From positions 1 through 40,617 of the forward strand of contig CAZTQJ010000001.1 of NCBI GenBank assembly GCA_964615615.1: a stretch of 40,617 nucleotides of DNA. Direction: 5' to 3'. Shown here in pieces: positions 5,721 to 36,150 of the stretch. The DNA is from an uncultured Acidimicrobiaceae bacterium. GTDB lineage: Bacteria; Actinomycetota; Acidimicrobiia; Acidimicrobiales; RAAP-2. The notes under the pieces were generated by a model, which was not told the origin of the DNA, did no database searches, and saw nothing but the letters and a program-made list of their open reading frames with translations. The first letter of the stretch is position 1; the number at the start of each line of letters is the position of its first letter. The position numbers and the translations under genes were made by a program.

Positions 5721-5728
5721 ATCAACTC

Positions 5729-6040: not shown

Positions 6041-6134
6041 AATGCCCCCAAATGATGCTTACTGGTGAACGCTGGATGGGTCTTAAAGGCCCGGGAATAA
6101 ACATTTGGCCCCACAGGGTAGGGCTTAAAGCCTT

Positions 6135-6263: not shown

Positions 6264-6418
6264 CACTTCTTACCGTATTTCTTCATGATGGCCTTGTCGG
6301 CCTTGAGGTCAGCCTTGCTTCCCTCCTTTATGCCCTTGGCCTTATCCATCTTCTCGTCGGCCTTCTTAGCCGCCTTGGGAGCATTCTTCGGAATGCCGAT
6401 TTCTTTGAGTTGCTTCAT
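6263..6418 (-). CDS. Lysine-rich small protein (51 aa).
   Basis: This ORF is not in the supplied track. It is joined by TGATG to genes on both sides. Sequence: MKQLKEIGIPKNAPKAAKKADEKMDKAKGIKEGSKADLKADKAIMKKYGKK. Confidence 0.45.
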   Translation of the reverse strand: MKQLKEIGIPKNAPKAAKKADEKMDKAKGIKEGSKADLKADKAIMKKYGKK

Positions 6419-7100: not shown

Positions 7101-7108
7101 TGAAGATC

Positions 7109-13615: not shown

Positions 13616-13618
13616 CGG

Positions 13619-14281
13619 TTATCCCTTCTTGTTGGTCCAGCCGTAGGTCCACGCATTGACCCCGGTGTTCAGAGAGTTGGAAATCGCATTGGCAGAGGCG
13701 ATCTGTGCCGCACCGGAGGCGTTCGCCGCTCCCATGAGGTTGTTGGAGAAGGTGTTCGTGTAGTTCTGGCTCGCCTGCTGATTGGCGGCGTTCGCCTGCT
13801 GACCTAGGCCAGCGATGGAGGACAACCGGCCGAACTGCTGATTGTTCTCTTGGTTCCACCGGCTGAAGGAGTTGTTGTATTCCTGTGAGGCGAAGTCCTG
13901 GTTGTAGCGGCTGAGTGCCTTCAGCGTCCCGCCACCAAGAACTCCTCCGCGAGCCGCCGCAGATCGCTCAATAGCCTTCGCACCTTCTGACATACGGAAG
14001 TCATAGCCAGGGTCCTTGATGAAGTCAGCCATCGTGAACCGACGGTTGAGGTCGCCGCCTGCGGCAGTCAACGATCCCAACTGGCCGAGAGCCGTTGCTC
14101 CAGCCAATCGCCAGGGCTCCTGATCAGCACGAGTCTGGTCAAACTGTGAAGTGGCGAGTGCGTTGGAGGCAGATGCCGCCGTAGACTGACCAGCCGCCGC
14201 AGATCGTGCCGCACTTGAAGAAATCAGCGCACTACCGACTGTGCCGACTACGACGGCCCCAGCAACCCATCCACTCATCAT
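13619..14281 (-). CDS. Internal virion protein (220 aa, P22 gp7-position analogue) with an N-terminal hydrophobic helix.
   Basis: It has the N-terminus MMSGWVAGAVVVGTVGSALI and a Q/N/A-rich remainder. The call rests on synteny and size. Confidence 0.55.
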   Translation of the reverse strand: MMSGWVAGAVVVGTVGSALISSSAARSAAAGQSTAASASNALATSQFDQTRADQEPWRLAGATALGQLGSLTAAGGDLNRRFTMADFIKDPGYDFRMSEGAKAIERSAAARGGVLGGGTLKALSRYNQDFASQEYNNSFSRWNQENNQQFGRLSSIAGLGQQANAANQQASQNYTNTFSNNLMGAANASGAAQIASANAISNSLNTGVNAWTYGWTNKKG

Positions 14282-15081
14282 TGACCCCCGTAGATTCGTG
14301 CTTCAAGTTTGGCGATGTCGCGCTCATTGTCAGGATTCGGATGAACGGTGTGGGCGAGAACATCATCGGCCGCAAAGATCACACGCTTAGTTCCAGGCTT
14401 GGTGAGCACGAAGGTGGGAGGGACGATGCCAGCCGCCCCTTCCTCGGTGATAATGACAAGACGGCCCTGGAGCATAGTAAGTATACACTCTTCGCGGTAT
14501 TCAGGCGTGGTAAATAACGTCCCTTTTTGTATTTTTGCGACACGAATGTAAAGACCGTCAGTGAATAGGTGCTCGAGGCCGTGATCAGCCTGGGGCATCA
14601 GAAGGAGCTCACGCTCCACTAGGTCAATAGCAGTCCGGAGCTCTTCGCAAGAGCCCCCATTGTCAACGAGCGAAATGAGGGAGCAGAAGGAGTTCTGAAC
14701 ACCGATGGAGGCCAGCACCTGATACTCAGCCCGACGAGCCTCGTTGACAGCACACCGATAATCGATGGTGATTTCCTCGTCAGCCTGGATGGGGCGCAGA
14801 GTTCTCATATAACCGCCGCCATCTGGGAGTGCTACCGTTTCAGCATTTGGCTCGTCGGAGTGGTTGGTCTTGTAGCCCAGCGGAGTTCGGTTGAGGCCGA
14901 GGCGCACCGCACCCACAACCTCATTCGCCGCATAGTCCTCGATGGCGAACACGCCCTCGCCATGGATCGGGGACTTGGCGACGATGAACTTGTAGTAGTC
15001 ATCGGGCATGGGGACGCAGTCTGCTCGTTCAGCAGAGTGAGCGGCCACGAGGTCGGCCGACATCCCGATGTCTACGAGCAT
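14278..15081 (-). CDS. SET-domain (lysine methyltransferase-like) protein fused to a C-terminal cupin-like beta-barrel region.
   Basis: Motifs SPIHGEGVFAIEDY, TNHSDEPNAE and ADEEITIDYR are present. The ATG at 15081 lies 12 nt after the upstream stop, and the longer ORF to 15201 overlaps the upstream gene. The C-terminal half (HLFTDGLYIRV..GTLF..H..ECILTMLQGRLVI) looks cupin-like. Confidence 0.7.
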   Translation of the reverse strand: MLVDIGMSADLVAAHSAERADCVPMPDDYYKFIVAKSPIHGEGVFAIEDYAANEVVGAVRLGLNRTPLGYKTNHSDEPNAETVALPDGGGYMRTLRPIQADEEITIDYRCAVNEARRAEYQVLASIGVQNSFCSLISLVDNGGSCEELRTAIDLVERELLLMPQADHGLEHLFTDGLYIRVAKIQKGTLFTTPEYREECILTMLQGRLVIITEEGAAGIVPPTFVLTKPGTKRVIFAADDVLAHTVHPNPDNERDIAKLEARIYGGQ

Positions 15082-15092
15082 ACTGTCAAAAC

Positions 15093-15428
15093 TCACACGA
15101 CCTCCGCAATCGCACCCTGGATGCTGATGGAAGTAGCGGCACTCGCCAGAGCCTGGAGCAAGCCCCCAGCCTGAAGCACCTGACCCTGAGCCTCGAAGCA
15201 CTCGTAGGTCTCGCCTGCACCGATGGAGCGAGCAGAGACCAGGGTGTTCGTGGCCGAGGCCGTTCCCGCAGAAGGCACGAGGTAGACGGTGACGGTCAAG
15301 GCCCCGGCAGTCGTGTTCGTGAAGGTAAGCTTCTTGATCAGCGAACGAGTGTTCGCCGGAGCCGTGTAGTAGGTCGTCGCAGTTGCGGCAACCTGGGCAG
15401 CAGTGATGGTCTTAGGGGTGACGCTCAT
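15093..15428 (-). CDS. Hypothetical virion-module protein (111 aa).
   Basis: AGGAG lies 7 nt before the ATG. The protein is T/A-rich and beta-like. Confidence 0.6.
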   Translation of the reverse strand: MSVTPKTITAAQVAATATTYYTAPANTRSLIKKLTFTNTTAGALTVTVYLVPSAGTASATNTLVSARSIGAGETYECFEAQGQVLQAGGLLQALASAATSISIQGAIAEVV

Positions 15429-15438
15429 GGGAGGGCTC

Positions 15439-17340
15439 CTAGGCTCTTACGATTCCGGGGGAATTGGTGAAATTAACTATGACAGTGGTCCCTACGGCAT
15501 CCACCCAGCCGACCTGCTGGAGGAGGTTGCCGGTAGTCGTTGGCGGTGTGAGCGTAGTTCCGCCAGCAGTAGAAAGGAACACCGGCTTGCCTACATCAGC
15601 GGCGGCATACGCACCAACTGGGATCACGGTATTGACACCGTAGAGATAGACCGTAGCAGTAGCCGCTGATGCGAAGCCAGCTAGAACAAATCCCTGAGCA
15701 GGCTTGGTGGCATCCGTAGAGTCAGCCGGTCTGGCGTTCTTGACCCCAGCGACGTTGTGGAAGTTGACCCACTGACCCGCCGTGAGCGTAGCAGAGACGA
15801 CCGCAGTCGTAGTGGGAAGTGCCGTGTATAGCGCGGAGTCCACCGTGCCATCGGCCTTGAGGAACTGAGCCGCAGTTCCACCTGTCTTCGCCACGGTGAG
15901 GGCAGTCAAGGCCCCGAGCGAGGTGATCTTCGCCACCTCAGCATCGGCGTAATTGTGGAGTGACCAAGCAGTAGCCCCGATGCTGTCGCCGAGTCGGTCG
16001 ATGATTCCGCTTCCAACCCCAACTCCACGGACTGCGCTTTCCAGCCCTCCGTAGACCAGGAGTTTCCCGGCAGGGTAGTTAGCCCGAACCGTCACAATCC
16101 CAGCGTGACGCACCTCACCAGAGGTTGGCTCAGTAGAGGTCAGGGCTCCAGCCGTAGAGACGTAGAGCTCCGTTCCTACCGCCCAGGCGTTTGTCTCAGC
16201 GTCACACTGGCCGGAGGTCGCTATAAATCCGTCAGCTTGGTGAGCGATGGGAGCGATGGTGATACCAATGACGTTGTGCTTCGCTTCGTCGGTATTGTCA
16301 GCCAGCAAGATCAGCGGGAGATTGTTGAACCCATTGACATAGACTGCTCTCGTGGAAGCGATGGTGACGCCAGTCTCGTTACGGACGTTCAGGCGGGTCT
16401 TATTCACACCAAGAATGCCAGCGTTGCTCATGGCCGCATCACCAGTGACAGCAACTCCCGTTGCGACATTGGATGCGTTGCCAACGAAGATGAAACCAGA
16501 GGTGAGTGCCGAAGTGAGCTTGCCGTTGAAGGTATTCCAGTCAGCCGCTGTCAGATACCCAGGAACTAGAGTCGTTGCCGCCGCCATGGAGATTGCCTGG
16601 GACTTCGCGGTGACCGCCCCCACCACGACTGGAGCAGTTCCAGAAACACTCTCTAGCACATTGACCTGAGCTCCGGCGGCGATGCCATCGAGCTTCGTGA
16701 TTTGCGTTGAAGTTGCGTAACCATCAACTGAAGCAGTAGCGGCAGGAATCGCAAAGGTGCGATTGGCTGAGAGATCTCCGCCGCCTGTGAGCGGAGCCGT
16801 GGTGCTGATGGTGCGGGTCGTGGGGACATAGCCCACCACAGAAGTAAGATAGTGCTGGGCCAGCACCCACTGACGGACGTCGGGCGCAGGCCAAAGGTCT
16901 TCGGGGTTAGTAGGACGAGGCGACGGATCTACCTGCCACTCCATAAAAGGAGCAGGGCGGGGCGAGACGTCGAAACTCAGATCATGAGAGGGCTCGATAG
17001 AGCGAGGATAGGGGTCATAGGCCAGAACTGCGGCATCATCAGTAGGAGAGGCTGAGAACCCGCCTACTCGTTGCTGAAGCTTGAGTAGCCAGATGTAGAA
17101 CGCCTGAGAGAAGCTATGCCCATCAGCCGTGATACACGCATTGGGAAGAGGCGGGGGAGGAAGAAGCGTCTGCTGGACAATCGCCGTCGTCGCCGCAGTT
17201 TGTGTCTGCTGATCTGTCGTAGCCGTGGGAGCTGTAGGATCAGCGGGGTCGGGTATCACAGTTGCCAGATCACCATCTAAAGCTGGGACAAACCCCCAGC
17301 CACCAATGATATCTGCATCAGTCTTGATTATCGGCCTCAT
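15439..17340 (-). CDS. Tail fiber protein (633 aa).
   Basis: Fiber-type motifs TAPLTGGGDLSANRTFAIP, SVDGYATSTQITKLDG and PGYLTAADWNTFNGK are present. Confidence 0.75.
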   Translation of the reverse strand: MRPIIKTDADIIGGWGFVPALDGDLATVIPDPADPTAPTATTDQQTQTAATTAIVQQTLLPPPPLPNACITADGHSFSQAFYIWLLKLQQRVGGFSASPTDDAAVLAYDPYPRSIEPSHDLSFDVSPRPAPFMEWQVDPSPRPTNPEDLWPAPDVRQWVLAQHYLTSVVGYVPTTRTISTTAPLTGGGDLSANRTFAIPAATASVDGYATSTQITKLDGIAAGAQVNVLESVSGTAPVVVGAVTAKSQAISMAAATTLVPGYLTAADWNTFNGKLTSALTSGFIFVGNASNVATGVAVTGDAAMSNAGILGVNKTRLNVRNETGVTIASTRAVYVNGFNNLPLILLADNTDEAKHNVIGITIAPIAHQADGFIATSGQCDAETNAWAVGTELYVSTAGALTSTEPTSGEVRHAGIVTVRANYPAGKLLVYGGLESAVRGVGVGSGIIDRLGDSIGATAWSLHNYADAEVAKITSLGALTALTVAKTGGTAAQFLKADGTVDSALYTALPTTTAVVSATLTAGQWVNFHNVAGVKNARPADSTDATKPAQGFVLAGFASAATATVYLYGVNTVIPVGAYAAADVGKPVFLSTAGGTTLTPPTTTGNLLQQVGWVDAVGTTVIVNFTNSPGIVRA

Positions 17341-18782
17341 GAGGTCCCCGACTTGAGCTCAAGTTCAGCTCCTGTAGCCGTGAACTTAATGGGGTCGGTG
17401 ATGCGGATTTCGTAGACACGGTTTCGTGACTGTCCCTGCTTATACCACATGACCCGAGTTCGGTAGTTGCCGATGGGGCCAAGCGAGCGAGCGACATAGG
17501 GCGACCAAGTGAACCCAAAATCATCAGACCAGCGCAGTTCAGCAATAGGATCTTGACCTACCACTGGAGAACCATCCAACCCCTGACCCATGGAGCCAGC
17601 GAGCTGGAAGTGCTGATAGAAGACACGATTCATGTTAGCTGAGAGATGTGGGGCGCGGCGGATCCGCACGATCGGGGCGCTATCGAAAGTGACAAGCGTG
17701 GGCGACATCTGGTAGATGTCTCCCGTAGCATAGTCGCCAATCACCTGAACACCGTAGGCTAGAGCATAGTTCTCTGCCCGATGCCGCTGCTCTATGCCAT
17801 TGTAGAGGAATACGCGCTCGCTCCACTGTTCGGTAGCCCCATCGTAGACCCAGGTCGCTGGAGTGTTCGGTAGATTCAGGCAATAGAAAGTGTGGCCGTT
17901 CTCCTGATAAGTCCAGGCAGTCGCCGTAGACAAGTCGGACTGTTGCTGAATAGCGAACTCTACGGCATGATTACTGATGCGCTTGGGAGTGAATCCCTGC
18001 GTAGTCCAGACAATACCCTTGGCCTTCGGTCCGCCACCAAGCCAGACGATAGCATTGTTGAACTTCTGGGCAGTATTCGCCGCCGCACACCCATACTCAA
18101 TGAATGCGCCATCAATGCGCTGGAAAGGAAAGTCAACATTGCCGGTATTCCACCAGACTTCGATAGTCTCTTGGCCTAGAAGCCAGACCTGTCGCATATT
18201 GGATACTACGGACACAATGTTATCAGGAGAACCCTCGGCGACGCCAAAGTCCAGGCCATCCCAGGTGAATCCATCATAAAGGCTAGAGATAGCGAACTGG
18301 TTAGAGTTCGCCGAGCCGGCAATGAAGTAGCCATCCTGGAATACGACGGTAGAGGATGCCGTGAAGTATTCGTTGGTAATCTTAGTCAGTTTGCCATCGA
18401 CTAGCGAAATGATATAGCCAGCCACCCCATCAACGATGATGAGTTGGGTGCCGTTATCCGCCATGGAGACGAAACCCGTAGAAGTGCCGATCGTGCCAGC
18501 AAGCGCAGAGGTCCAAACCCCAGCGGCCAACTGGACACGATAGACTTCGTTACCAGAAACAACGGCAAGCCGCCCCGAGGAAGTAAACCACATTCCACGG
18601 ATGGGGCCGAGACCTAGCGTGAGGAGTTTCTGATACCCAGGAACCTGAACTAGCGCGGCGACCTCACCATCGGCCTGCGTCTGGAGTTCGTTCACCTCAG
18701 GATACCAATTCACGCACCTCTGGCAGTCAGCAACCACTGACTGAAGTGTGTAGCCGGGGCCGATGAACCCAGGGAATCTCAC
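17337..18782 (-). CDS. P22 gp10-like tail hub (DNA stabilisation protein).
   Basis: It is 481 aa with a GTG start. The C-terminus YRTRVMWYKQGQSRNRVYEIRITDPIKFTATGAELEL parallels the P22 gp10 C-terminus, and the position after the adaptor fits. Confidence 0.65.
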   Translation of the reverse strand: MRFPGFIGPGYTLQSVVADCQRCVNWYPEVNELQTQADGEVAALVQVPGYQKLLTLGLGPIRGMWFTSSGRLAVVSGNEVYRVQLAAGVWTSALAGTIGTSTGFVSMADNGTQLIIVDGVAGYIISLVDGKLTKITNEYFTASSTVVFQDGYFIAGSANSNQFAISSLYDGFTWDGLDFGVAEGSPDNIVSVVSNMRQVWLLGQETIEVWWNTGNVDFPFQRIDGAFIEYGCAAANTAQKFNNAIVWLGGGPKAKGIVWTTQGFTPKRISNHAVEFAIQQQSDLSTATAWTYQENGHTFYCLNLPNTPATWVYDGATEQWSERVFLYNGIEQRHRAENYALAYGVQVIGDYATGDIYQMSPTLVTFDSAPIVRIRRAPHLSANMNRVFYQHFQLAGSMGQGLDGSPVVGQDPIAELRWSDDFGFTWSPYVARSLGPIGNYRTRVMWYKQGQSRNRVYEIRITDPIKFTATGAELELKSGTS

Positions 18783-19501
18783 TACTTCCCCGTCAGCCAG
18801 TTGAACGCCGCAGGGGGAGAGAGTAGCGCAGGATCACAGTCCAGATAGAGGGGAATAGAGTTGATACGCTTGACCTGGGCCAGCGAGTCCACGGCAATCT
18901 GGGAGACTATCGGGCTGGGCATCAACCCATACTCAGCAGAGAGCTCCATCGCCAAGTTGTAGATGATGGCTCGCTCATAGCCAGGGGGTAGACTCAGGTC
19001 AGTATTGATGTCGGCCACAGCCAAGACCTGATTCCAGGTCCATAGAATCAACTGATTGGCCTCGGACGGAATCGGCCATAGGTAGAGCGTGATATTCGGG
19101 AAGTCGCCAGTCGAATACATCTTCGTGGGATACGTAGACGATAGAGTTTTGACGGCGAGTTCTGACCACTCCTCATCCTCGATCATCTTGATGGGCAGTT
19201 CGATGTTTGGCACAGTAGACAGCACCCGCAGCAGAGCCCGATCGATACTCGTCGGGCGCAGTTGCGGGGCTGTCTGGATATCGCCAGTAGGGCCGACCGT
19301 GTAGGTCTGCTTACCGACGATGAGCGTGTATGCGTCGAAATTCTTGGTGTAGATGTTGAGGCTGTTGATATTCCATGCTTCAAGCATAGAATTCAATGCT
19401 GACAAGCCGTCCGCCGCATCACCAGCAGGTAAGGGAGTTCCCTGTGCCACGGCGCCGAGAAGGCGAACCGCTCGTGTGATGATGCTACGGACAGCAGTCA
19501 T
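18782..19501 (-). CDS. Head-to-tail adaptor-like protein (P22 gp4-position analogue).
   Basis: The call rests on its position between the head genes and the gp10-like gene. It is 239 aa. Confidence 0.5.
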   Translation of the reverse strand: MTAVRSIITRAVRLLGAVAQGTPLPAGDAADGLSALNSMLEAWNINSLNIYTKNFDAYTLIVGKQTYTVGPTGDIQTAPQLRPTSIDRALLRVLSTVPNIELPIKMIEDEEWSELAVKTLSSTYPTKMYSTGDFPNITLYLWPIPSEANQLILWTWNQVLAVADINTDLSLPPGYERAIIYNLAMELSAEYGLMPSPIVSQIAVDSLAQVKRINSIPLYLDCDPALLSPPAAFNWLTGK

Positions 19502-19503
19502 GG

Positions 19504-19722
19504 CTACTCCTTGACCTTGGGCCGGAACTTGAACTGGTCAGCAGAGGGGCAGGTTATGAGGCCGAAGTCGGAGGGGTTGGAATACCACCCATCCAGTTCT
19601 TCGAGCTCCTGCTCATCGTTGACAAGGATCGGTTCGTAGTCGGGGTGATACCTCCAAGTTGGGAAATGCTGAACGACGATGGCCTTGGGCTCGGGCTCAG
19701 CCTGTGCCTTTGGCGTCGCCAT
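19504..19722 (-). CDS. Hypothetical protein (72 aa).
   Basis: TAATG couples it to the upstream gene. Confidence 0.55.
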   Translation of the reverse strand: MATPKAQAEPEPKAIVVQHFPTWRYHPDYEPILVNDEQELEELDGWYSNPSDFGLITCPSADQFKFRPKVKE

Positions 19723-20006
19723 TAAGCACCGCCCTTCCAGAGACCGAGGCCAGTCAGGGTGGCGATGATCTCATTGACCTTGGCGATCAGCGAGTCACCG
19801 TGGGCCTTGTCGGAGAACCCATAAGGAGTCGTGGCCGTGAGGGTGTCGGCGAAAGCGACCTGGACAGCAGAGGCACGGCGAGCGACAGGAGTCGTGAGAC
19901 CGTAGAACCCGATGAGGTCGGTGGAGTTGGGGCCGAGGACGTAGCCATCCGGGGTGCTGGACGACACGACCTTGGTGCTAGAAGTGACGATATTGGGGTC
20001 AGCCAT
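19722..20006 (-). CDS. Hypothetical head-associated protein (94 aa).
   Basis: GGAGA lies 5-6 nt before the ATG at 20006. It is immediately downstream of the coat gene. Confidence 0.55.
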   Translation of the reverse strand: MADPNIVTSSTKVVSSSTPDGYVLGPNSTDLIGFYGLTTPVARRASAVQVAFADTLTATTPYGFSDKAHGDSLIAKVNEIIATLTGLGLWKGGA

Positions 20007-20057
20007 TTGATTCTCCAAAGATGCCCCGGCCGAAGCCGGGGCGTGAGGGGTTGAGGA

Positions 20058-21275
20058 CTAGGCTCCCTGAACTCGGCAAGCCAGTTCGGGGTAGATAGCG
20101 GCCCAGCCGTAGAGGACATCGAGGCGGCAGGGGAAGATGTCATTGACGATGTCGTATGCCCGGACCATGCGGACCGAGAGGCCGACTTTCTTGGAGCTCA
20201 CTCGGGCGGCCATGTCCACACCACCGGGGAGGGGCAGATCGGCGGAGCAGAGAGTGAAGGCGGCGGGGTGGTAGATCAGGTTAGTGGCGACCACCTGAGC
20301 CGTGGTGCCAAGAACGGTGATCAGAGCACCATCGGCCGGGAGAGCGTTGACCGTGGGGGTCTGGACGCCAGTGCCAGCGACCGTGAGAGGAGGATACACG
20401 GCGATGGAGCCGGTGCCGTCGGACAGCGAGCTGAACTGCGAGGTCACGACGAACTGGCGCAGATGGCCGGTGGTCTCGCGGGTCTGGGGGTTGACGGCGT
20501 AGACACTGGCGATGGTGAAGACGTCGCCCTTGTTGAGCCGAACGGCGGCGGCAGAGGTCCAAGCCTTGGTAGCGAGGCTGGAACCGGAGACAGCCGCACC
20601 ATCAATGGCCGGGGAGCCGCCCTGAACGCCGTAGGTGTGATTGTAGACGTTCTGATCCATGCTGAACTTCTGCCCAGCGGCGAGGCCCATGTTGCCCTGC
20701 TCATACTGGTCAGAGATCTGGCTGGAGCTGTGGAACAAGCCCTTCAGACCCTGAACCATGGAAGCTTCGCTCCAGGGGCTGAGGACGGTGGAGAGCTGGC
20801 CGTCCTGAGGACAGGCATTGTCAGCGAGGAGAGCCTTGCCCTTGAGGAAGTAATCGAGGTCGGTAAGTGCCGCCCCGGTTCCGGTCGTGTTGGCGACGGA
20901 CTGGTAGAGCAGGAGGCCATCACGGTCAATCTTGTTTGCGACCACGGCCATCGCAGGCTTGATGAACCGCTTGCTGAAGTCGTCGATGTTGAGCAGGAGG
21001 TCCTTGCTGGAGAACTGAATGTCGACGCCGAACTGGGTGGTGAGGACCACAGGGACGCTGGTCTCCACGGAGTTCTCGATCTTCAGGGTCTGTCCGGAGC
21101 GGCCGATGTAGCGGGGCGGCTTTCGGGCATTGACGGTATCGCCGACCTTGGCCCCAGCGACGGCGAACTTGTCGTCGTAGTCACGGTTCGCGCCCTTGGC
21201 AAAAGTGAGGTTGTTCTCCAGAACCATCGTCGCTTCGCGCGTGATGGTGCTGATAGTAAGAAGAGTATTGGACAT
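20058..21275 (-). CDS. Major capsid protein, P22 coat-protein-like.
   Basis: The N-terminal pattern ITREATMVLENNLTFAKGANRDYDDKF..GAKVGDTVNARKPPRY matches the family. It follows the scaffold gene and has a strong C-ending codon bias. Confidence 0.85.
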   Translation of the reverse strand: MSNTLLTISTITREATMVLENNLTFAKGANRDYDDKFAVAGAKVGDTVNARKPPRYIGRSGQTLKIENSVETSVPVVLTTQFGVDIQFSSKDLLLNIDDFSKRFIKPAMAVVANKIDRDGLLLYQSVANTTGTGAALTDLDYFLKGKALLADNACPQDGQLSTVLSPWSEASMVQGLKGLFHSSSQISDQYEQGNMGLAAGQKFSMDQNVYNHTYGVQGGSPAIDGAAVSGSSLATKAWTSAAAVRLNKGDVFTIASVYAVNPQTRETTGHLRQFVVTSQFSSLSDGTGSIAVYPPLTVAGTGVQTPTVNALPADGALITVLGTTAQVVATNLIYHPAAFTLCSADLPLPGGVDMAARVSSKKVGLSVRMVRAYDIVNDIFPCRLDVLYGWAAIYPELACRVQGA

Positions 21276-21286
21276 CTAGATCCCCT

Positions 21287-22108
21287 TCAGGATTGTTTGG
21301 CTCGCCACGCTCGGTATTCATCCAGGTCCATATCGTCGGGGGACTTCTGACCCCCTGAACCCTTACCTCCCGTGACAGGCGAGATTGGTTTCTTGGCTTG
21401 AGTGACCTTCAGTTGCGGGATTTCGTCTTTGGGTTCTGCCGCCTTGATCAGCCGGTCTTCAATAAGGCCAAGGGCTTTCGCGGCAGCGATAGGGCCTTTC
21501 TTGGAGATTTCTGTAAGTTCGTCAGGGTTGGAGGCGAGGTAGTAAAGGAGCTCGCCACCAATTTCCGATTCAATCAGCACGTCGTTCACAATGGGGCTGA
21601 CTGGAAGGTCTTGCTCTAGCAGTTCGGCGAGGTCAGGGTGCGTCTTGTGAGCGGCCTGCACTCGTTCCTGCCAAGAAGAGGTCTTAACCTCTTCCTTTTC
21701 TTTCTCTACTGCCTTGACGGTCTCGGCCCGAAGTTCCGCGATTGCATCCTTCTTGGCCTTGGCAGTTTCGAACTTGACGAGTGCGGCGATGTAGTCAGCC
21801 TGCGATTCAAAGAACAGGGGGTCGGGTGCCGTCTCCTCTGTTACTGCCGTCTCGGTCTTGGGCGTTTTCAGGGCCGCGAGTTCGGCTTCAAGTTCATGCT
21901 GGCGAGTGACCAGCTTGTCGATGCGCTTCTGAAAGCCGCCCTTCTTCTTTATTGCGGGAACTTCCTCTTCGTCTTCCTCTGCCGGTTCTTCTACCTTGGG
22001 AGGAACTGCTTCTTCCTTCTCAGGAGGCACAATGCCTGCGGCACTCAGCACCTGTTCATCGGAATCAGTGGTCGAGGAAATTTCAAGATCGGACATGGAG
22101 TTCTCCAT
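21287..22108 (-). CDS. Scaffolding protein.
   Basis: The protein is E/K/A-rich and helical and lies between the portal and coat genes. The alternative start at 22096 has a GGAG SD. Confidence 0.7.
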   Translation of the reverse strand: MENSMSDLEISSTTDSDEQVLSAAGIVPPEKEEAVPPKVEEPAEEDEEEVPAIKKKGGFQKRIDKLVTRQHELEAELAALKTPKTETAVTEETAPDPLFFESQADYIAALVKFETAKAKKDAIAELRAETVKAVEKEKEEVKTSSWQERVQAAHKTHPDLAELLEQDLPVSPIVNDVLIESEIGGELLYYLASNPDELTEISKKGPIAAAKALGLIEDRLIKAAEPKDEIPQLKVTQAKKPISPVTGGKGSGGQKSPDDMDLDEYRAWRAKQS

Positions 22109-22136
22109 GAATTACCCCGGTGAACTCGCCGGTAAG

Positions 22137-25929: not shown

Positions 25930-26282
25930 CACTTCCCCGACATCAGTGCTTCGAGTTGGCGAGCGATATCTTCGTCGCTGAGCTCCTCGGCTCCGTCGAT
26001 ATTCTCTACCTGCTGAGCGGTGAGCTTCGGGGCGAAGTAGTTCGCACACGCAGTCGCACACTCCACCCGATCAGTGAAGTTCGGGTAGTAGACTCGCTCA
26101 CGGAGGGAACCATCCTCTCGCTCCTCGACCAGATCAATGCCCTCACCTCGCGCCACACGCAGAAGGAACTCATGGGGGAGCTCACCGCCATCTCTGGCTC
26201 GCTTTCGTGACTCCTCGGCCCATCGGCCCGTCGCTCCCTTGCCCCTCGCTCCTAGGCCGGTTCGTGCGCTGAGATCTGCCAT
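25929..26282 (-). CDS. terS: Terminase small subunit-like protein.
   Basis: It is the first gene of the structural arm and is coupled to terL. GGAG lies 5 nt before the ATG. Confidence 0.6.
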   Translation of the reverse strand: MADLSARTGLGARGKGATGRWAEESRKRARDGGELPHEFLLRVARGEGIDLVEEREDGSLRERVYYPNFTDRVECATACANYFAPKLTAQQVENIDGAEELSDEDIARQLEALMSGK

Positions 26283-26299
26283 ATGAACTCCGAGCCCCT

Positions 26300-26328
26300 A
26301 GTATACGCTCGAATGAATCCAGATGCAA
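26300..26328 (-). promoter_or_regulatory. Sigma70-like promoter candidate for the structural arm, TTGCAT-N17-TATACT.
   Basis: On the minus strand the -35 hexamer is at 26328-26323 and the -10 hexamer at 26305-26300, with an exact 17-nt spacer. The GGAG SD and the terS ATG follow directly. Confidence 0.4.
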
Positions 26329-26432
26329 GTGGTGATTTAGTGTAATTCGTGACTTACATGAACATTGATTCGGCGGCCACTGTGACGAGGGAGGCGACGC
26401 TGACCGCCGACGCCGCAAGGGGTGGCCCCGGA

Positions 26433-26460
26433 GGGCGAAGATTGCCGGGCGAAGATTGCC
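26433..26460. repeat. Tandem 14-bp repeat GGGCGAAGATTGCC, two copies.
   Basis: The exact adjacent copies are at 26433-26446 and 26447-26460. Confidence 0.9.
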
Positions 26461-26463
26461 GGG

Positions 26464-26510
26464 TGACGCAGAACGACCATTGAGTGACGAACTACGACCA
26501 CTGAGTGACG
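26464..26510. repeat. 21-bp phased repeats: TGACG three times and the 17-mer ACGACCAYTGAGTGACG twice.
   Basis: TGACG starts at 26464, 26485 and 26506. The 17-mers are at 26473-26489 and 26494-26510 and differ at one base. Confidence 0.85.
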
Positions 26511-26760
26511 TGCTACGACACGAGGCAAGAAGTGCATGACCCGGTGCATAGAAGACGTTGCAATATGCCACGGCGGACCGTTTATGCAGGGAACGGGCAA
26601 ATTATGCATGACTAAAAAGTATGCACTTAACACTAAGCCATGCCATGCCAGCACTTAGCATTAACACTAGCTACGAAAACAATGCATAATTTACCACTGT
26701 TAAATGGGGGAGCATATGCAAGCCGCTGTAAACAATGCACTTAGTAACGCATATAACAGT

Positions 26761-26860
26761 ATTACAGTTTACACTACTTTTAAATAATAATAATAAATAA
26801 TAATATATAGGGTAACAATATATAGTATATGGTTTTAAACAGTGTAAAACTGTAAATGTG
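26761..26860. other. Extremely AT-rich tract with an (AAT)n-like run. This is a candidate DNA unwinding element.
   Basis: I counted 9 G/C in 26761-26820 (15%) and 17 of 60 in 26821-26880, whereas the rest of the genome is visibly GC-rich. Confidence 0.6.
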
Positions 26861-26862
26861 TT

Positions 26863-26942
26863 TAAGTGCATTGTTTGCAGCATTACCAAGCCTAAGCCCA
26901 AAATAAACTGTTATTTACTTGGTGCTGCAAACAATGCACTTA
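26863..26942. repeat. Large inverted repeat with a perfect 19-bp core, extendable to arms of about 25 bp with a 3-nt bulge.
   Basis: TAAGTGCATTGTTTGCAGC (26863-26881) is the reverse complement of 26924-26942. ACCAAG (26885-26890) pairs with CTTGGT (26918-26923). Confidence 0.9.
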
Positions 26943-26970
26943 GCAAAATGTTACTGCAAACAATACACTT

Positions 26971-27001
26971 GCAAACCTTAGTGCATTGTGCTAAGGTTTG
27001 C
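26971..27001. repeat. Perfect 11-bp stem hairpin/palindrome with a 9-nt loop that carries the repeat word.
   Basis: GCAAACCTTAG (26971-26981) pairs with CTAAGGTTTGC (26991-27001). The loop is TGCATTGTG. Confidence 0.85.
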
Positions 27002-27140
27002 ACCCCATAGGCTACCCAAGGGTAAACAACGCACCCCATAAACACAGTTTGCAGTAACAATGGGCATTGTTACCCTGCACAGTAACAATGCGCCTAATTT
27101 TTATACAGACAAAATAATAAAAGTATTTTGAAATTAGGGC

Positions 27141-27169
27141 TTGCACAGCGCCGCCCAATGGCTTAACCT
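27141..27169 (+). promoter_or_regulatory. Promoter candidate TTGCAC-N17-TAACCT.
   Basis: It has the same architecture, and the same TAACCTTTAGGTA-like -10 context, as the candidate at 27849-27877. Confidence 0.3.
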
Positions 27170-27227
27170 TTAGGTAATAAGTAGTGCCGGTCTTTGCCAA
27201 ACCCATAGCGCATAAAACCTTTTTACC

Positions 27228-27253
27228 GTAACAATGCAATACCGCATTGTTAC
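27228..27253. promoter_or_regulatory. Operator-like palindrome GTAACAATGC-N6-GCATTGTTAC.
   Basis: It is a perfect 10-bp inverted repeat ending 4 nt before the -35-like TTGCGG of the adjacent promoter candidate. It is built from the iteron word. Confidence 0.6.
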
Positions 27254-27256
27254 AAC

Positions 27257-27285
27257 TTGCGGCCACAATGCCGCACCACTATAAG
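27257..27285 (+). promoter_or_regulatory. Promoter candidate TTGCGG-N17-TATAAG immediately upstream of the 27294 gene.
   Basis: The spacer is exactly 17 nt. The -10 hexamer ends 8 nt before the ATG, which implies a very short or absent leader. Confidence 0.35.
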
Positions 27286-27293
27286 GGGCTAAC

Positions 27294-27536
27294 ATGCCCA
27301 AGCAAGCTACCACGCCCAGCACCACGCCCAGCACCCCTAAGGTGCCTAAGGTGGCAAACCAAGCCATTACCCTACTGGTAACGGTAAATCCCAAACGTGG
27401 CAAAAGCCAAGCCCGTTACGAGCTGTATAAAACCTGCACCACTACCCATGCTTTTATTGCGGCAGGTGGTTACAGCGCCGACCTTGCCTGGGACACCCAG
27501 CGCAAGTTTATTAGCCTTGCACCCATTACCGCCTAA
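27294..27536 (+). CDS. Small protein (80 aa) paralogous to the C-terminus of 1204..1767. It is a candidate DNA-binding regulator or origin-binding protein.
   Basis: It is a clean ORF between the operator-like palindrome and an intrinsic terminator, with the shared motif LLV..NPKR...ELY...F.AAGG.SADL. I counted 32 of 80 codons ending in A or T. Confidence 0.75.
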   Translation: MPKQATTPSTTPSTPKVPKVANQAITLLVTVNPKRGKSQARYELYKTCTTTHAFIAAGGYSADLAWDTQRKFISLAPITA

Positions 27537-27541
27537 CACCA

Positions 27542-27570
27542 AAAGCCCGGCTACACAGCCGGGCTTTTTT
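27542..27570 (+). terminator. Intrinsic terminator.
   Basis: AGCCCGGCT (27544-27552), loop ACAC, AGCCGGGCT (27557-27565), then TTTTT. Confidence 0.85.
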
Positions 27571-27741
27571 GTGCTTGCACCCATAAACACCCATATGCAT
27601 ACCTATGCATACTTGCACCAATGCCTGCACCCATACTTGCAAACCGCAATATTGTAAAAACAATTTTCGTTGCCTAAAACCGCGAGGATTCACCTGGGCC
27701 TTCCCACATCGCTATTTCCGTATGGCCTACGAAGAAAACTC

Positions 27742-27786
27742 CAAGACGCGAGGATCGTTTTGAAAATTGGCCCGGCGATTTCACGC
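27742..27786 (+). promoter_or_regulatory. Conserved intergenic element, copy 1. Its partner is at 29102..29145.
   Basis: CAAGACGCGAG-GATC-GTTTT...TCACGC. The first 20 nt match the partner at 18 positions. It lies upstream of the early gene block. Confidence 0.45.
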
Positions 27787-27848
27787 GAGCGCGAGAGTGA
27801 TCCCCTAGGCTTGCCGCAAACTATTTGCTATCAACCGTAACTTAACCC

Positions 27849-27877
27849 TTGCGTTAGATGCCCCATGATTGTAACCT
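27849..27877 (+). promoter_or_regulatory. Promoter candidate TTGCGT-N17-TAACCT for the early operon.
   Basis: The spacer is exactly 17 nt. The -10 hexamer lies about 39 nt upstream of the ATG at 27916, which has a GGAGG SD. Confidence 0.35.
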
Positions 27878-27915
27878 TTAAGGTATAGGGTATTACCCCT
27901 ACCACGGAGGCTATC

Positions 27916-30640: not shown

Positions 30641-30809
30641 GTGGCTTCAGGAAATCTACCGCAAAGCCGACGCCGCCAAAGTCCACTCTATGCGGCTGAG
30701 CCGCCAAGCACAAACGCTCCTATGGAGCGAGGTGAACTACCCCAAAGCACTCTGGATCTGGCGCAGTAAGCAATTCTTTAAATTCTGGAACGGGACCATC
30801 AATGAGTAG
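30618..30809 (+). CDS. Hypothetical protein (63 aa).
   Basis: AAGGAG lies 7 nt upstream of the start. Confidence 0.55.
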   Translation: MSEQSNTEWLQEIYRKADAAKVHSMRLSRQAQTLLWSEVNYPKALWIWRSKQFFKFWNGTINE

Positions 30810-32841
30810 CACCTTCAAGCTTCTCCCTGATGTCCACAATGCGATGTTGGACAAAGCCGCTGAGTCTGGGCTACCGCCTGACCTCGCAAAGCGGCTGTCC
30901 TTCAAAGCCTACCTCGCAGAAGAGGTCGGTAGCCTGGGCCTCCCCATCCAGAAGGCTGGCTTCAAGATTCCCTACCATGACTTCCAAGGCCTCCAGACTG
31001 CGTTCTGGAGGTTTCGGTTTCTGGAGCGCACCAACGAAGGGTTCGCCGCACTCACCGACAAGAAAGATGTCCGCTACCTCCAGCCCAAGAAGTCGGTCAA
31101 TGAGATCTACATACCGCCGATTATCAACTGGGGCAAAGTGATAGCTGACGCCACCATCCCGATTGTTATTACCGAGGGCGAGTTAAAAGCCGCCTGTGCC
31201 TGTGCCGTAGGGATACCCACGCTGGGCCTGGGAGGGGTCTGGTGCTTTCGGTCGGCGGCCCAGCACATGGTAATGCTACCCCAGTTCTCGCAGGTCACCT
31301 GGACCCAGCGGATGGTCTACATTTGCTATGATTCCGACGCCTCTAGCAACCACATGGTAATCCAGGCTGAGAATGCCCTGGCCCGGGAGCTCCTGGGCCT
31401 CGGTGCTATACCAATGATTGCACGGCTACCATCCCTATGCCCTCCACGTAAGACTGGTCTGGACGACTTCATTGTGTCCGAGGGCCTGGAGGAGTTCAAG
31501 CGCATCATTGAGCGAGCAGTTCCATGGAAGGCTGGGCAAGAGCTTCATGCCCTCAACGAGGAGGTAATCTATGTCAACAATCCGGGCTTGGTTCTGCGAC
31601 TTGATAATTTGCAGCGTCTGGCTCCTCGTGCCTTCACGGACCATGCGTTTGCGACTCGCAGGTATTTTGAGGAAGTTATCACGACAAATGGCACGAAGAT
31701 GGTTGAGCGTTCCGCCGCCCAAGAATGGCTCAAATGGCCGAGTCGCGCAACGGTAGAGAAGGTGACCTACAAACCTGGTCTCGCACGAATAACGGACCAG
31801 GGCGAGCTAAACATCTGGAGGGGCTGGGGTTGCACTCCTAGTGAGGGCGACATCAAGCCCTGGCAGGCACTCCTTTCCTACATATTCCCGACCGATGCCG
31901 AGCGGCTATGGTTTGAACGATGGCTGGCCTACCCTCTCCAGCACCCTGGGACCAAGATGGCAACGAGTGTCCTGATATGGGGCCGCGTTCATGGGACCGG
32001 GAAGTCAACGCTGGGCTACACGATGTTCAAGATCTACGGCGAGAATGCGGCTGAGATTCAAGACAAAGAACTCAGTGCCAGCTTCAACGAGTGGGCCGAG
32101 AACAAGCAGTTCGTACTGGGCGACGAAATCACTGGCGGTGACAAGCGAGCCAGTGCCGACCGCATGAAGTCCATGATTACCCAGAAGCAGTTGCGGCTGA
32201 ATGTCAAGTATATCCCCAGCTACACGATTCCCGACTGCATAAACTACCTCTTCACAAGCAACCATCCCGATGCCTTCTTCCTTGAGGATGCCGACCGCCG
32301 GTTCTTTATCCACGAGGTCAAGCAGAGGCCAATGCCCGATAGTTTCTACGAAAAGTATAACAAGTGGATGAATGGGTCCGGCCCCCATGCGCTGTTTCAT
32401 CGACTACTCAACTTAGACATGGGGGACTTCAATCACCAAGCCCCTGCCCCTATGACCGAGGCCAAGCAGACAATGATTGACAGCGGACGTAGTGACCTCG
32501 GCACATGGATCGCCATGCTCCGGGACACGCCAGAGGTCGTGCTACGGCTCGGCGAAAAGGTGCTCCCGTATAAACTCTGGACAGCCAGCGAGCTCCACGC
32601 TCTCTACGATACCCGCCAAACTGGGAAGGTCACTGTAAACGGCCTCTCGCGCGAGTTAGCCCGAGCAGGGTTCGAGCGAGTCTACAAGGGCCAGCCCTGC
32701 CAGACCTCTATTGGCGGCCAACGACTTTGGATGATCCGGCCATTTAACGATCTCAACATGACCGGCCTGCAACTCGGCCAACTCTACACCAAAGAGAGGG
32801 GACTGATATGGCCGAAAACCTCTTCTGCGTCCTCGGAGTAA
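30802..32841 (+). CDS. DNA primase-helicase (TOPRIM domain plus D5/P4-like SF3 P-loop NTPase).
   Basis: Motifs IVITEGELKAACA and ICYDSDASSN (TOPRIM), GRVHGTGKST (Walker A) and FVLGDEITGG (Walker B) are present. Confidence 0.85.
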   Translation: MSSTFKLLPDVHNAMLDKAAESGLPPDLAKRLSFKAYLAEEVGSLGLPIQKAGFKIPYHDFQGLQTAFWRFRFLERTNEGFAALTDKKDVRYLQPKKSVNEIYIPPIINWGKVIADATIPIVITEGELKAACACAVGIPTLGLGGVWCFRSAAQHMVMLPQFSQVTWTQRMVYICYDSDASSNHMVIQAENALARELLGLGAIPMIARLPSLCPPRKTGLDDFIVSEGLEEFKRIIERAVPWKAGQELHALNEEVIYVNNPGLVLRLDNLQRLAPRAFTDHAFATRRYFEEVITTNGTKMVERSAAQEWLKWPSRATVEKVTYKPGLARITDQGELNIWRGWGCTPSEGDIKPWQALLSYIFPTDAERLWFERWLAYPLQHPGTKMATSVLIWGRVHGTGKSTLGYTMFKIYGENAAEIQDKELSASFNEWAENKQFVLGDEITGGDKRASADRMKSMITQKQLRLNVKYIPSYTIPDCINYLFTSNHPDAFFLEDADRRFFIHEVKQRPMPDSFYEKYNKWMNGSGPHALFHRLLNLDMGDFNHQAPAPMTEAKQTMIDSGRSDLGTWIAMLRDTPEVVLRLGEKVLPYKLWTASELHALYDTRQTGKVTVNGLSRELARAGFERVYKGQPCQTSIGGQRLWMIRPFNDLNMTGLQLGQLYTKERGLIWPKTSSASSE

Positions 32842-33134
32842 CGCCCTCCGTCACTCAAGACCAGCTTGCCGTCGCTTTCCGCGATGTTAGCCGGGAGTGC
32901 CATCCTGATATTGGCGGCGACCCTACCTCCTACCAAGAAGTAGTTGATGCCTACAACGCACTGAAAGACCCTGCGAACCGTGCCGCCTATGTTCAGTGGC
33001 TTGAGTTAACACAGGATCAATGCCCGAGTTGCAAAGGTCTCGGGATGCGCTGGCAGCAGCGAGGGTTTCGGGGCGGCACGTTCTTCTTATGCACCACTTG
33101 TAAAGGAGCTGGATTCCATGAACGCTGTTCTTGA
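32808..33134 (+). CDS. J-domain protein with a DnaJ-type CxxCxGxG zinc finger (mini-DnaJ).
   Basis: Motifs LFCVLGV...CHPDIGGD (HPD), CPSCKGLG and CTTCKGAG are present. Confidence 0.75.
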   Translation: MAENLFCVLGVTPSVTQDQLAVAFRDVSRECHPDIGGDPTSYQEVVDAYNALKDPANRAAYVQWLELTQDQCPSCKGLGMRWQQRGFRGGTFFLCTTCKGAGFHERCS

Positions 33135-35545: not shown

Positions 35546-35746
35546 ATGCCCAATGACGAAACCCTGCGCTCTTGGCGGACACTTGACCGCCAGATTTTGC
35601 ATCTAAGCGAGAAGGAGCTGTGGGAACTTCTTAAACTAGAGCACAGCACCGCACGACGTCGCTTGTTCATAGCCCGAATCTTCGGGAGAGCCAACAAACT
35701 CCGAGCAACACGGGAGTTAAAAGAGTATTTGAAGGGAAGCCTGTGA
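35546..35746 (+). CDS. Hypothetical protein (66 aa).
   Basis: It is an ORF whose stop overlaps the HNH gene start as GTGA. Confidence 0.5.
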   Translation: MPNDETLRSWRTLDRQILHLSEKELWELLKLEHSTARRRLFIARIFGRANKLRATRELKEYLKGSL

Positions 35747-36150
35747 GCATACCCATAGAAAGGTTTGAATCCAAGATAGCATACTGCCCGATAACTGGGT
35801 GCCATCTATGGACTGGCGGTATTCGTGATGGTTACGGTCAGTTTTGCTTTAATAGTAGAATGATGCAAGCTCACCGCTGGGCCTACGAACAAGCGAATGG
35901 CCCGGTTCCCAAAGAGTTTGATTTAGACCACACCTGTAGAATTCGTAACTGCGTAAACCCTGAGCATCTCCGACCAGTAACTAGGCTTGAAAATCTACAC
36001 GCCCCAGGAAGTCTGCACCACGGCGCAAGAGCTTTCTGTAAGAAATGTGGGGGCTCATACACTATAGAATCTGGAAGAGGCTATTCACAGCGGACTTGTG
36101 TGCCGTGTAAAAGGAGTCGCTATGCGCGTTCCAAGCCCAATAACGATTGA
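35743..36150 (+). CDS. HNH homing endonuclease.
   Basis: Motifs GCHLWTGG..DGYGQF, AHRWAYE and DLDHTCRIRNCVNPEHL are present. Confidence 0.85.
   Translation: MSIPIERFESKIAYCPITGCHLWTGGIRDGYGQFCFNSRMMQAHRWAYEQANGPVPKEFDLDHTCRIRNCVNPEHLRPVTRLENLHAPGSLHHGARAFCKKCGGSYTIESGRGYSQRTCVPCKRSRYARSKPNND

Follow-up and report, generated by a model that had tools for sequence, protein, structure and literature searches.

A two-orientation word array in the divergent control region of an uncultured podovirus-like phage: a possible operator field at predicted early promoters

The stretch of DNA analysed here (contig CAZTQJ010000001.1, 40,617 nucleotides (nt), hereafter called the window) is the nearly complete genome of a podovirus-like phage, as indicated by the map of its open reading frames (ORFs) and by protein family scans. 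Its genes form two divergent arms, separated by a control region of about 1 kb (26283-27293), in which the word AACAATGC recurs many times in both orientations. This array is the subject of the present work. The leftward arm runs from about 26282 down to 5307 and opens with a 117-amino acid gene in the position of the terminase small subunit, the gene for the terminase large subunit (TerL) and a P22-type portal. The rightward arm starts at the first early gene (27294), runs past the end of the window and resumes at position 1 to end at about 5317. Its products are small early proteins, a DUF932 protein, a DUF3854/DUF5906 primase-helicase, a DnaJ-like protein, a ligase, an HNH endonuclease, a DNA polymerase I-type polymerase, nucleases, a SNF2-like helicase and a thymidine-hypermodification cassette.

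Among the phages in GenBank no close relative of the window was found at the DNA level. The portal is 40-47% identical to those of Rhodoferax phage P26218, EBPR podovirus 1 and phage assemblies from spring and lake water. The genome organisation of P26218 is unlike that of the window, and its genome and the accompanying paper give nothing on the origin or the genome ends except 'terminally redundant or circularly permuted'. Scanning of approximately 45 ORFs, with most of the leftward arm (5994-22136) outside the scan, revealed no integrase or repressor, and the phage appears to be virulent. No phage RNA polymerase gene was found in the window.

A sequence-only reading of this DNA had described about 12 copies of the word within 576 bp of non-coding DNA between the two arms, next to an AT-rich tract, and both the location and the count stood up. 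The ORFs at 26182-26654 gave no family match, and in the equivalent stretch of related phages (0.9-1.36 kb) gene callers placed no genes except for one call of 66 amino acids, in L135. The GC content is 36% in the array region and 56% in the whole window. Exact copies of AACAATGC lie at 26678, 26731, 26930, 27084 and 27230 on the + strand and at 26868, 27064 and 27244 on the - strand. With the one-mismatch copies at 26959, 27025 and 27056 (+) and 26983 (-), the range 26678-27253 holds 12 copies, eight direct and four inverted, and a further one-mismatch copy (27264, +) lies just beyond it. The only other exact copy in the 40.6 kb is at 18052 (-). In dinucleotide shuffles of the region the word occurred 0.12 times on average and three times at most, and an 8-mer of any sequence reached eight copies in 2 of 2000 shuffles. 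When windows of 576 nt were slid along the whole sequence, no 8-mer exceeded three copies outside approximately 26300-27580, in agreement with the earlier statement that there is no comparable cluster elsewhere. The array is thus a non-random cluster found nowhere else in the window, and it is very probably functional DNA. It is an ordinary, familiar kind of phage control region, and by itself it reveals no new kind of system.

Two classes of sites make up the array (Table 1). Class A consists of five sites of about 20 nt, GCTG(C/T)AAACAATGCACTTAG, three of them good copies and two degenerate, which flank an AT-rich core on both sides in mirror orientation. The core itself is symmetric: three TTACAG/TTACAC heptads on one side and three inverted ones on the other enclose about 55 nt of 75-100% A+T. 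The distances between the centres of the 20-mers are 138, 60 and 30 bp, in mixed orientation, irregular and without helical phasing. Class B consists of five 9-10-mers, GTAACAATG(C), arranged as dyads to the right of the core: a + - + triplet (27054, 27065 and 27082) and the pair 27228/27245, with a degenerate copy inside the AT tract (26810). The two palindromes quoted in the sequence-only reading, GTAACAATG-GG-CATTGTTAC at 27054-27073 and GTAACAATGC-N6-GCATTGTTAC at 27228-27253, are both perfect. The half-sites of the class-B dyads are spaced 11, 17 and 17 bp from centre to centre and stand head-to-head as well as tail-to-tail. Nearly every repeated word of the control region contains TGCA, which occurs 29 times in 26500-27700 (expected 4.3, an enrichment of about 7-fold) versus 92 times in the rest of the window (expected 148), where it is depleted. 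A second word, GCACCC(C)ATA, had been reported to recur at 27000, 27031, 27577 and 27627; it does, and it is not confined to these positions, being present also at 5350 and 11989 (+) and at 1402 (-). The 15-mer AAACAATGCACTTAG gave 82 single matches in IMG/VR and no contig with two; these matches are chance occurrences, and the lineage of the window is absent from that collection.

Table 1. Coordinates of the features discussed in the text (window positions unless a related contig is named)
Feature	Position	Strand	Remarks
Small gene in terminase-small-subunit position, 117 amino acids	25929-26282	leftward arm	ORF map
Isolated word copy GAAAACAATGCAT	26675-26687	+	Over spacer and -10 of consensus-scan promoter TTAACA-18-CATAAT, 26661-26690
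Class-A site left of AT tract, GCTGTAAACAATGCACTTAG	26725-26744	+	Alignments
Three tandem TTACAG/TTACAC heptads, -35-like	26755-26775	+	In all relatives
AT-rich tract, 75-100% A+T	26775-26830		TATAGGGTA at 26806-26814; degenerate word GGGTAACAATA at 26810-26820
Inverted heptads GTGTAAAACTGTAAATGTG	26838-26858	-	Mirror of 26755-26775
Class-A site, inverted; - strand reading GCTGCAAACAATGCACTTAA	26863-26882	-	Perfect 20-nt inverted repeat with 26923-26942; 95% inverted repeat with 26725-26743
Class-A site TGCTGCAAACAATGCACTTA(G)	26923-26942	+	
Degenerate class-A site ACTGCAAACAATACACTTGC	26953-26972	+	
Degenerate class-A site CTTAGTGCATTGTGCTAAG, itself palindromic	26977-26995	-	In spacer of -35/-10-like pair TTGCAA-N17-TAAGGT (26969-26997); overlaps TGTGCTAAGGTTTGCA (26984-26999), the homolog of the L167 -24/-12 motif with GG changed to GT
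Two GCACCCCATA words (27000, 27031) and degenerate word copy GTAAACAACGCAC (27022-27034)	27000-27040	+	Homologous to '-12 element plus start region' of promoter-like sites in L167 and L135
Promoter-like site TTGCAG-N16-TACCCT, family type	27049-27076	+	Spacer is the dyad 27054-27073
Dyad GCATTGTTAC-N8-GTAACAATGC, then T-run (terminator-like)	27064-27100	+	Terminator scan
Promoter-like site TTGCAC-N17-TAACCT	27141-27169	+	AT-rich stretch upstream (27095-27135); aligns with TTGCGC-N17-TATCCT of L003
Perfect dyad GTAACAATGC-aatacc-GCATTGTTAC	27228-27253	+	In predicted 5' leader
Small GC-rich hairpin GCGGC-CACAAT-GCCGC	27258-27275	+	Right ahead of ribosome-binding site; one-mismatch word CACAATGC (27264-27271) covers loop and start of 3' arm
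First early gene, 80 amino acids	27294-27536	+	Terminator at 27541-27568
GCACCCATA words at 27577 and 27627 with TATGCATAC and CATACTTGCACC repeats	27577-27635	+	Downstream of first gene
Promoter-like site TTGCGT-N17-TAACCT, then TATAGGGTA (27884)	27849-27892	+	Upstream of second early gene (27916)
Primase-helicase, DUF3854 and DUF5906/VapE-like	30802-32841	+	Candidate initiator if the array is an origin
Cro/YdaS-like helix-turn-helix protein, 62 amino acids	33118-33306	+	YdaS_toxin 1.4e-5, HTH_3 0.027, both below curated cut-offs
TGGCAC-N5-TTGCA-like motifs of relatives, aimed at first early gene	L143 657, 943; L135 3935; L244 2690, 2900; L167 214; L141 98; L003 2587(-); L004 196(-); L005 2415(-); L238 1241(-), 1021(-), 1571(+), 1599(+)		

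All promoters described here are pattern matches. Three sites of a sigma70-like early-promoter type belonging to the phage family, TTGCnn-N16-18-TA[ACT]C[ACT]T, were found in the window, at 27049, 27141 and 27849. On the + strand of 26283-27900 only 0.107 such sites are expected, and 2 of 3000 shuffles reached three. The same type recurs in five relatives (L167, L135, L003, L244 and L238), always directed towards early genes. We infer that the 27141 site is the promoter of the first early gene. The dyad 27228-27253 would then lie at about +52 to +77 from the predicted start, and this dyad, the second one, together with a small conserved hairpin, would belong to the putative leader of gene 27294. 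The sequence TATAGGGTA, the putative transcript-start motif of the family, occurs only twice in the window, once in the AT tract (26806) and once 7 nt past the -10 element of the 27849 site; the same pairing is found in L003 and, with the variant AT-tract copy TAGGGGGTA, in L135. Because of this restricted distribution, the AT tract very likely contains a rightward start site. Much of the array would accordingly be promoter or leader DNA. Dyad-symmetric sites overlap core elements of predicted promoters, 27054-27073 filling the spacer of the 27049 site and 26977-26995 lying within that of TTGCAA-N17-TAAGGT, and the class-B dyads occupy three places: the spacer of the promoter-like site 27049-27076, the sequence just after it, and the putative leader of the first gene. 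Two other assignments were tried and dropped: CCCCAT as a sigma32-like element has no suitable -35 by eye, and the word itself as a -10 hexamer has no -35 at 17 bp.

The same region was gathered from ten related phage contigs (given here by L numbers). In L142/L143 TerL is 97% and the primase-helicase 98% identical to that of the window, and in L244 the gene in the small-subunit position is 67% and the primase-helicase 75% identical. Metagenome scans gave no match for the small gene, and for TerL only relatives of at most 58% identity. All ten relatives have a gene-free region of 0.9-1.36 kb with a common skeleton, consisting in this order of a GC-rich block, CAGCACTTAG, AATGGGG, a class-A-type site, heptads, the AT tract and inverted heptads. 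The flanks of the class-A-type site, GCCGCTG and GCACTTAG, are invariant in the family, while its inner 8 nt are different in each phage; the inner word is the same at the left and the right class-A sites of the window, and likewise in L003, a sign of homogenisation within the genome. To the right of the skeleton, repeated words and long perfect inverted repeats are present that differ from phage to phage. The conservation check proposed with the sequence-only reading therefore had a divided outcome: the skeleton is conserved, whereas the word is found only in the two closest relatives and at other positions. The 9-mer GTAACAATG is kept in L167 and in L142/L143, in differing numbers and positions. 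L167 has GTAACAATG-G-CATTGTTAC, further copies and the + - + triplet, and L142/L143 have CATTGTTAC-N8-GTAACAATG, which matches the arms of the 27064-27100 dyad of the window. AACAATG is absent from L135/L001, L003, L004, L005, L244 and L238/L239. Another contig, L256, was rejected as a carrier, its several TAACAATG copies being part of an unrelated TTGTTACGTAAT repeat.

Our tentative first choice, held with less than even confidence, is that the AACAATGC copies are recognition sites of at least one phage-encoded, sequence-specific DNA-binding protein and that the array is an operator field at the early promoters. It is ranked first because the copies coincide with the promoter-like sites and the start motif, and because they behave as co-evolving, homogenised sites. 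Identical words in both orientations and in varied contexts are typical of protein sites and not of independent RNA stems, and three near-identical 20-mers cannot all pair with one another. The non-random clustering, the promoter-like motifs that relatives carry at the same positions, the occurrence of lineage-specific words on a conserved skeleton, the presence of a small Cro-like helix-turn-helix (HTH) gene in the phage and the lack of any indication of a host explanation would further support it. The sequence-only reading had compared the array with replication origins and with operator fields of master regulators; the general class of protein-binding sites remains the most reasonable, and nothing specific to origins was found.

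According to this proposal, a dimeric regulator, for which the 62-amino acid Cro-like HTH protein is the candidate, would fill the sites once the early genes are expressed, and would then shut off or re-route rightward early transcription by promoter occlusion and by acting as a roadblock. Binding at the symmetric core may in addition tilt the balance between rightward and leftward transcription. The sites and their reader would co-evolve, the copies being homogenised within each genome, which may be why the word differs among related phages. The array is not uniform: one dyad at least behaves as an element conserved in structure and free in sequence, and at least the dyad 27228-27253 may be maintained for its symmetry or hairpin and not for the word itself. 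Operator, origin and RNA roles are not mutually exclusive.

Several points weigh against the operator field. The dyad spacings of 11, 17 and 17 bp and the differing orientations could not all be accommodated by one rigid dimer, and a dozen sites across 580 bp are many for a simple switch. The HTH gene lies 6 kb from the array, and its Pfam matches are below the curated cut-offs. The binding and the transcription starts are predictions, and the promoters are pattern matches only. The phage seems virulent, with no integrase or repressor among the ORFs scanned. Finally, three compensatory pairs turn the L167 counterpart of the 27228-27253 dyad into a non-word sequence, which fits a hairpin better than a shared operator.

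The resemblance to the OR/OL operators of lambdoid phages and P22 (Cro/CI) and to the early shut-off operators of virulent phages lies in repeated dyads of about 17-20 bp that overlap or flank early promoters in a divergent region, in words that vary between close relatives while the architecture is kept, and in the small Cro-like HTH protein encoded. Unlike those systems, the window shows no repressor/integrase module and has its HTH gene 6 kb away; it has about 12 sites of two classes with inconsistent half-site spacing, and their binding is predicted. The early/late transcription switch, and perhaps the origin, of this uncultured group of freshwater podoviruses, which also carry a thymidine-hypermodification cassette, would first be sought in the control region, and with its two site classes, three dyads and three promoter-like sites the array offers concrete targets for tests. 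As the comparison shows, control words turn over fast while the skeleton stays fixed, a point of relevance to cross-regulation among co-infecting relatives and to the breaking of assemblies at this place.

The protein encoded at 27294 and its paralog had been put forward as readers of the word. The paralogy is real, with 52% identity to a domain at 1585-1761, but the protein is a poor candidate reader of the variable word, because its conserved domain is 63-81% identical in relatives that lack the word. It consists of a low-complexity N-terminus and a conserved domain of about 55 amino acids with the pattern ..LLV..NPKR..S..R(F/Y)ELY....T...F.AAGG.SADL..D....FI.L. The family defined by this domain is large, with 2146 cluster representatives at E<=1e-3, and uncharacterised. 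The domain frequently follows, on the C-terminal side, low-complexity tails rich in K, P, A and T, and fusions to SNF2 helicases or PHD fingers occur in some cases. No match was found in Pfam, PHROG or NCBIfam, nor by sequence in PDB, and the AlphaFold model (predicted local distance difference test (pLDDT) score 85; a first model, with pLDDT 52, was unusable) matches no known fold, DNA-binding folds included. The protein was accordingly rejected as an HTH protein. It could read a conserved word such as GCACTTAG.

The 62-amino acid Cro-like HTH protein is the only recognisable candidate reader of the dyads. Its gene lies between a DnaJ-like gene (32808-33134) and the ligase gene, and relatives keep this position with 29-50% identity; the homologs of L240 and L242 at the same position match HTH_3 at 2e-6 and 4e-7. 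Among the phages compared, the window and L244 are the only ones whose sequence includes both the HTH gene and the control region. An operator for a host regulator was rejected, the dyad being scattered over unrelated taxa among 185,579 bacterial genomes with no taxon-specific enrichment.

The symmetric AT-rich core could alternatively mark a replication origin. The words would then be iterons bound by an initiator of the phage, for which the D5/P4-alpha-like primase-helicase is the most plausible candidate, with the AT tract (26775-26830) as unwinding element, or initiation would be primed by transcription from the AT-tract promoter as at the primary origin of T7. We consider this doubtful in either form. 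The tract reaches 100% A+T in a genome of 56% GC, is flanked by mirror repeats and is conserved in ten of ten relatives, short words stand on both sides of it in both orientations, and the divergence of two arms is a typical location of origins. Of replication proteins, the phage encodes a primase-helicase with an SF3-like core as well as a polymerase of the DNA polymerase I type. No consensus sites for DnaA (TTATCCACA, at most one mismatch), IHF or CtrA were found in 26283-27700, and without DnaA boxes a phage-specific initiator would be needed; the absence of these host-factor sites is also one of the grounds for seeing nothing specific to an origin here. The GC skew, recommended as a test by the sequence-only reading, changes sign near 7 and 23 kb and not at the array (26.8 kb). 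The irregular spacing of the 20-mers is not that of phased direct repeats as in iterons, and the AT tract, bearing a transcript-start motif, looks like a promoter.

The primase-helicase matches a solved structure (PDB 6K9C/6K9E) by its SF3-like helicase core only, and no origin-binding domain was found in it. Its C-terminus is conserved, and its N-terminal 50 amino acids and residues 350-400 vary (46-64% identity at 75% overall). These fastest-evolving parts are 90-98% identical in the cluster of relatives at 97% identity, in favour of the origin. L142/L143, with a 98% identical primase-helicase, share the 9-mer but not the 20-mer word; the inner word of class A differs between the window and L143 despite 98% identity of the primase-helicase over its first 518 amino acids, which weighs against the origin.

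The origins of phage P4 (ori/crr) and of staphylococcal pathogenicity islands (SaPIs) have short words of 6-8 bp in both orientations flanking an AT-rich segment, and these words are element-specific. Such replicons encode an SF3/D5-type primase-helicase able to act as initiator. The window is similar in its both-orientation words around an AT-rich segment and in having its own primase-helicase. It differs in that the array lies 3.5 kb from the helicase gene, the word partly differs between phages with 98% identical helicases, the AT tract bears the start motif and the helicase has no recognised origin-binding domain. In T7 the early region has the tandem host promoters A1-A3, and the primary origin consists of promoters and an AT-rich segment. 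Like T7, the phage of the window is a podovirus that encodes a polymerase of the DNA polymerase I type and a primase-helicase, and it has tandem host-type promoter-like sites and an AT-rich segment before the first early gene; unlike T7, its arms are divergent and no phage RNA polymerase gene was found, and iterated dyads are foreign to T7.

Structure in RNA or single-stranded DNA is another explanation, in which the inverted copies would be stems of an early leader of about 480 nt transcribed from the AT tract. The stems could be long RNase III-type stems, an attenuator or terminator (27064-27100) or stabilising hairpins of the 5' untranslated region, and the word would be a by-product of local duplication. 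As an account of the array as a whole we regard this as unlikely. Strong stems are predicted at 26855-26950 (-37.5 kcal/mol, z -5.9) and at 27215-27300 (-32.1 kcal/mol, z -6.0), and a terminator scan flagged the hairpin and T-run at 27064-27100. The best-supported spot for a hairpin is the dyad 27228-27253, whose L167 version, GCACCTATGC-aataac-GCATAGGTGC, has three changes per arm, all compensatory; at this position just upstream of the first gene symmetry appears to be kept and the word not. The hairpin before the ribosome-binding site (27258-27275) is likewise conserved in structure but not in sequence in L167, L244 and L143, and long perfect inverted repeats, unrelated in sequence, lie at comparable places in other relatives, with arms of 30 nt in L167 and 21 nt in L135. 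Independent stems, on the other hand, do not need identical arms, and the single copies at 26678, 26959 and 27025 as well as the third 20-mer are unpaired. The arms of the + - + triplet are conserved at 9 of 9 positions in the window, L167 and L143 while the loops vary, and the T-run after its third copy is not kept in L167 or L143. Neither an Rfam nor a tRNA match was found in the region, and perfect palindromes carry no G-U information, so that the strand cannot be assigned.

Even the closest relatives differ by rearrangements in the right half of the region, and pieces such as CCATAGGCTACCCAAGGGTA, located upstream of the first gene in the window, are found downstream of it in L167 and L141. 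The copies might thus be products of turnover (slippage, short-homology recombination or correction of quasi-palindromes), only the skeleton being functional and the word having no function as such. The rearrangements, the change of side of these pieces and the breaks or gaps of the assemblies of L167 and L142 at this place are in its favour. We judge it very unlikely, given that eight perfect copies of the 8-mer are maintained, that three diverged genomes have kept the same 9-mer, at different positions, and that the copies coincide with promoter-like sites. The L167 assembly starts inside a dyad, L142 has a gap of 100 N (approximately 2628-2727) in the right half of the region, and contigs P0174 and P0176 end just short of the control region. 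These ends and gaps are consistent with repeats or microdiversity there.

In every relative the control region also has canonical -24/-12 (sigma54-type) motifs, directed at the first early gene. On the strand leading to the early genes, nine relatives together have 12 versus 0.66 expected, and in L238 and L239 two more point leftwards. These motifs (e.g. TGGCACGCCCAATGCA) occupy the positions of the class-A and class-B copies of the window, and the GCACCC(C)ATA words match the '-12 element plus start' part of them. The control stretch thus appears to be promoter territory across the phage family. In the control region of the window itself no GG-N10-GC motif of acceptable quality was found, the best candidate scoring 8/12. 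At the counterpart of the L167 motif the sequence is TGTGCT...TTGCA, with GT in place of GG. A literature search gave no report of virulent phages using sigma54 promoters, and their use by apparently virulent phages would be unusual.

CbrB, a sigma54 activator of Pseudomonas, binds the subsites TGTTAC and GTAACA upstream of GG-N10-GC promoters (PMC6296734). GTAACA/TGTTAC in the window could be half-sites of a CbrB-like host enhancer-binding protein, the array being its enhancer. We find this highly improbable. The match to the subsites in forward and reverse orientation and the excess of -24/-12 motifs downstream of repeat fields in the relatives argue for it, as does the unrelated phage L255, in which two TGTAACAAT...ATTGTTACA dyads lie between six perfect -24/-12 motifs. 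Against it, the window has no acceptable -24/-12 motif and GT for GG in the L167-site homolog, the conserved word is 9-10 nt long and not 6, the dyad has no taxon-specific enrichment in bacterial genomes, and CbrAB is confined to pseudomonads (PMC6296734). A related scenario, in which this apparently virulent podovirus group drives its first genes from sigma54-type promoters with repeat-field enhancers and the lineage of the window has swapped to sigma70-like promoters while keeping and expanding activator sites of the GTAACA/TGTTAC type, is also distinctly unlikely. If this were true, the AACAATGC array would serve a host enhancer-binding protein as enhancer or decoy, and early transcription of the phage would be linked to the physiology of its host. 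The L255 dyads (5560-5760 of IMGVR_UViG_3300028388_004314) precede a first gene with a similar T/K-rich N-terminus, and this contig has no protein homology to 18 proteins of the window.

The region abuts TerL and the gene in the small-subunit position, and known terminase sites are short words in both orientations. The words could therefore be imagined as terminase small-subunit sites of a pac or cos region, like the R sites of lambda cosB or pacL/pacR of SPP1, but there is only a slight chance of this: the array begins about 400 bp from the small-subunit-position gene, and better repeats lie nearer to it. A GC-rich block at 26370-26520 (GGAGGCGACGC...AAGGGGnnCCCCGGAGGG) is conserved in L143, L003, L244 and L238, and after it come lineage-specific tandem repeats, GGGCGAAGATTGCC twice and GTGACG..ACGACCAYTGA two to three times (26433-26520), adjoining that gene. 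The block and its repeats are the best candidate for a packaging signal.

The thymidine-hypermodification cassette occupies 28-5317 on the + strand (ORFs 28-1110, 1111-1767, 1829-2599, 2556-3422, 3419-4414 and 4390-4929). It comprises genes for a SNF2-like helicase, the N-terminus of which is cut by the window start, for the protein in which the paralog of the 27294 domain lies, and for a TET-associated glycosyltransferase (PF20691), a 5-hmdU DNA kinase (PF18723), a thymidylate-synthase-like enzyme and an HD/YfbR-like phosphohydrolase. Thymines of the phage DNA are probably modified, and any protein reading the T-rich words would be affected by this. Some 4-bp palindromes are strongly avoided throughout the window (GTAC 5 occurrences, approximately 148 expected; ACGT 47; CTAG 60), and GATC, at normal frequency elsewhere (188), is absent from 26500-27700.

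The HNH endonuclease gene (35743-36150) overlaps the start of the DNA polymerase gene (36098), and in L141 an HNH gene is inserted directly after the first early gene instead; these genes look like mobile endonucleases moving within the phage family. Downstream of the first gene, a block of about 130 nt (27670-27800; CCGCGAGGA..CCCACATCGCTATTTC..AAGACGCGAGGATCGTTTTGAAAATTGGCCCGGCGATTTCACGCGAGCG) holds a single doubtful ORF with a TTG start and gave no Rfam match. It is kept in L141, L143, L167 and L003, and could be a small RNA or another control element.

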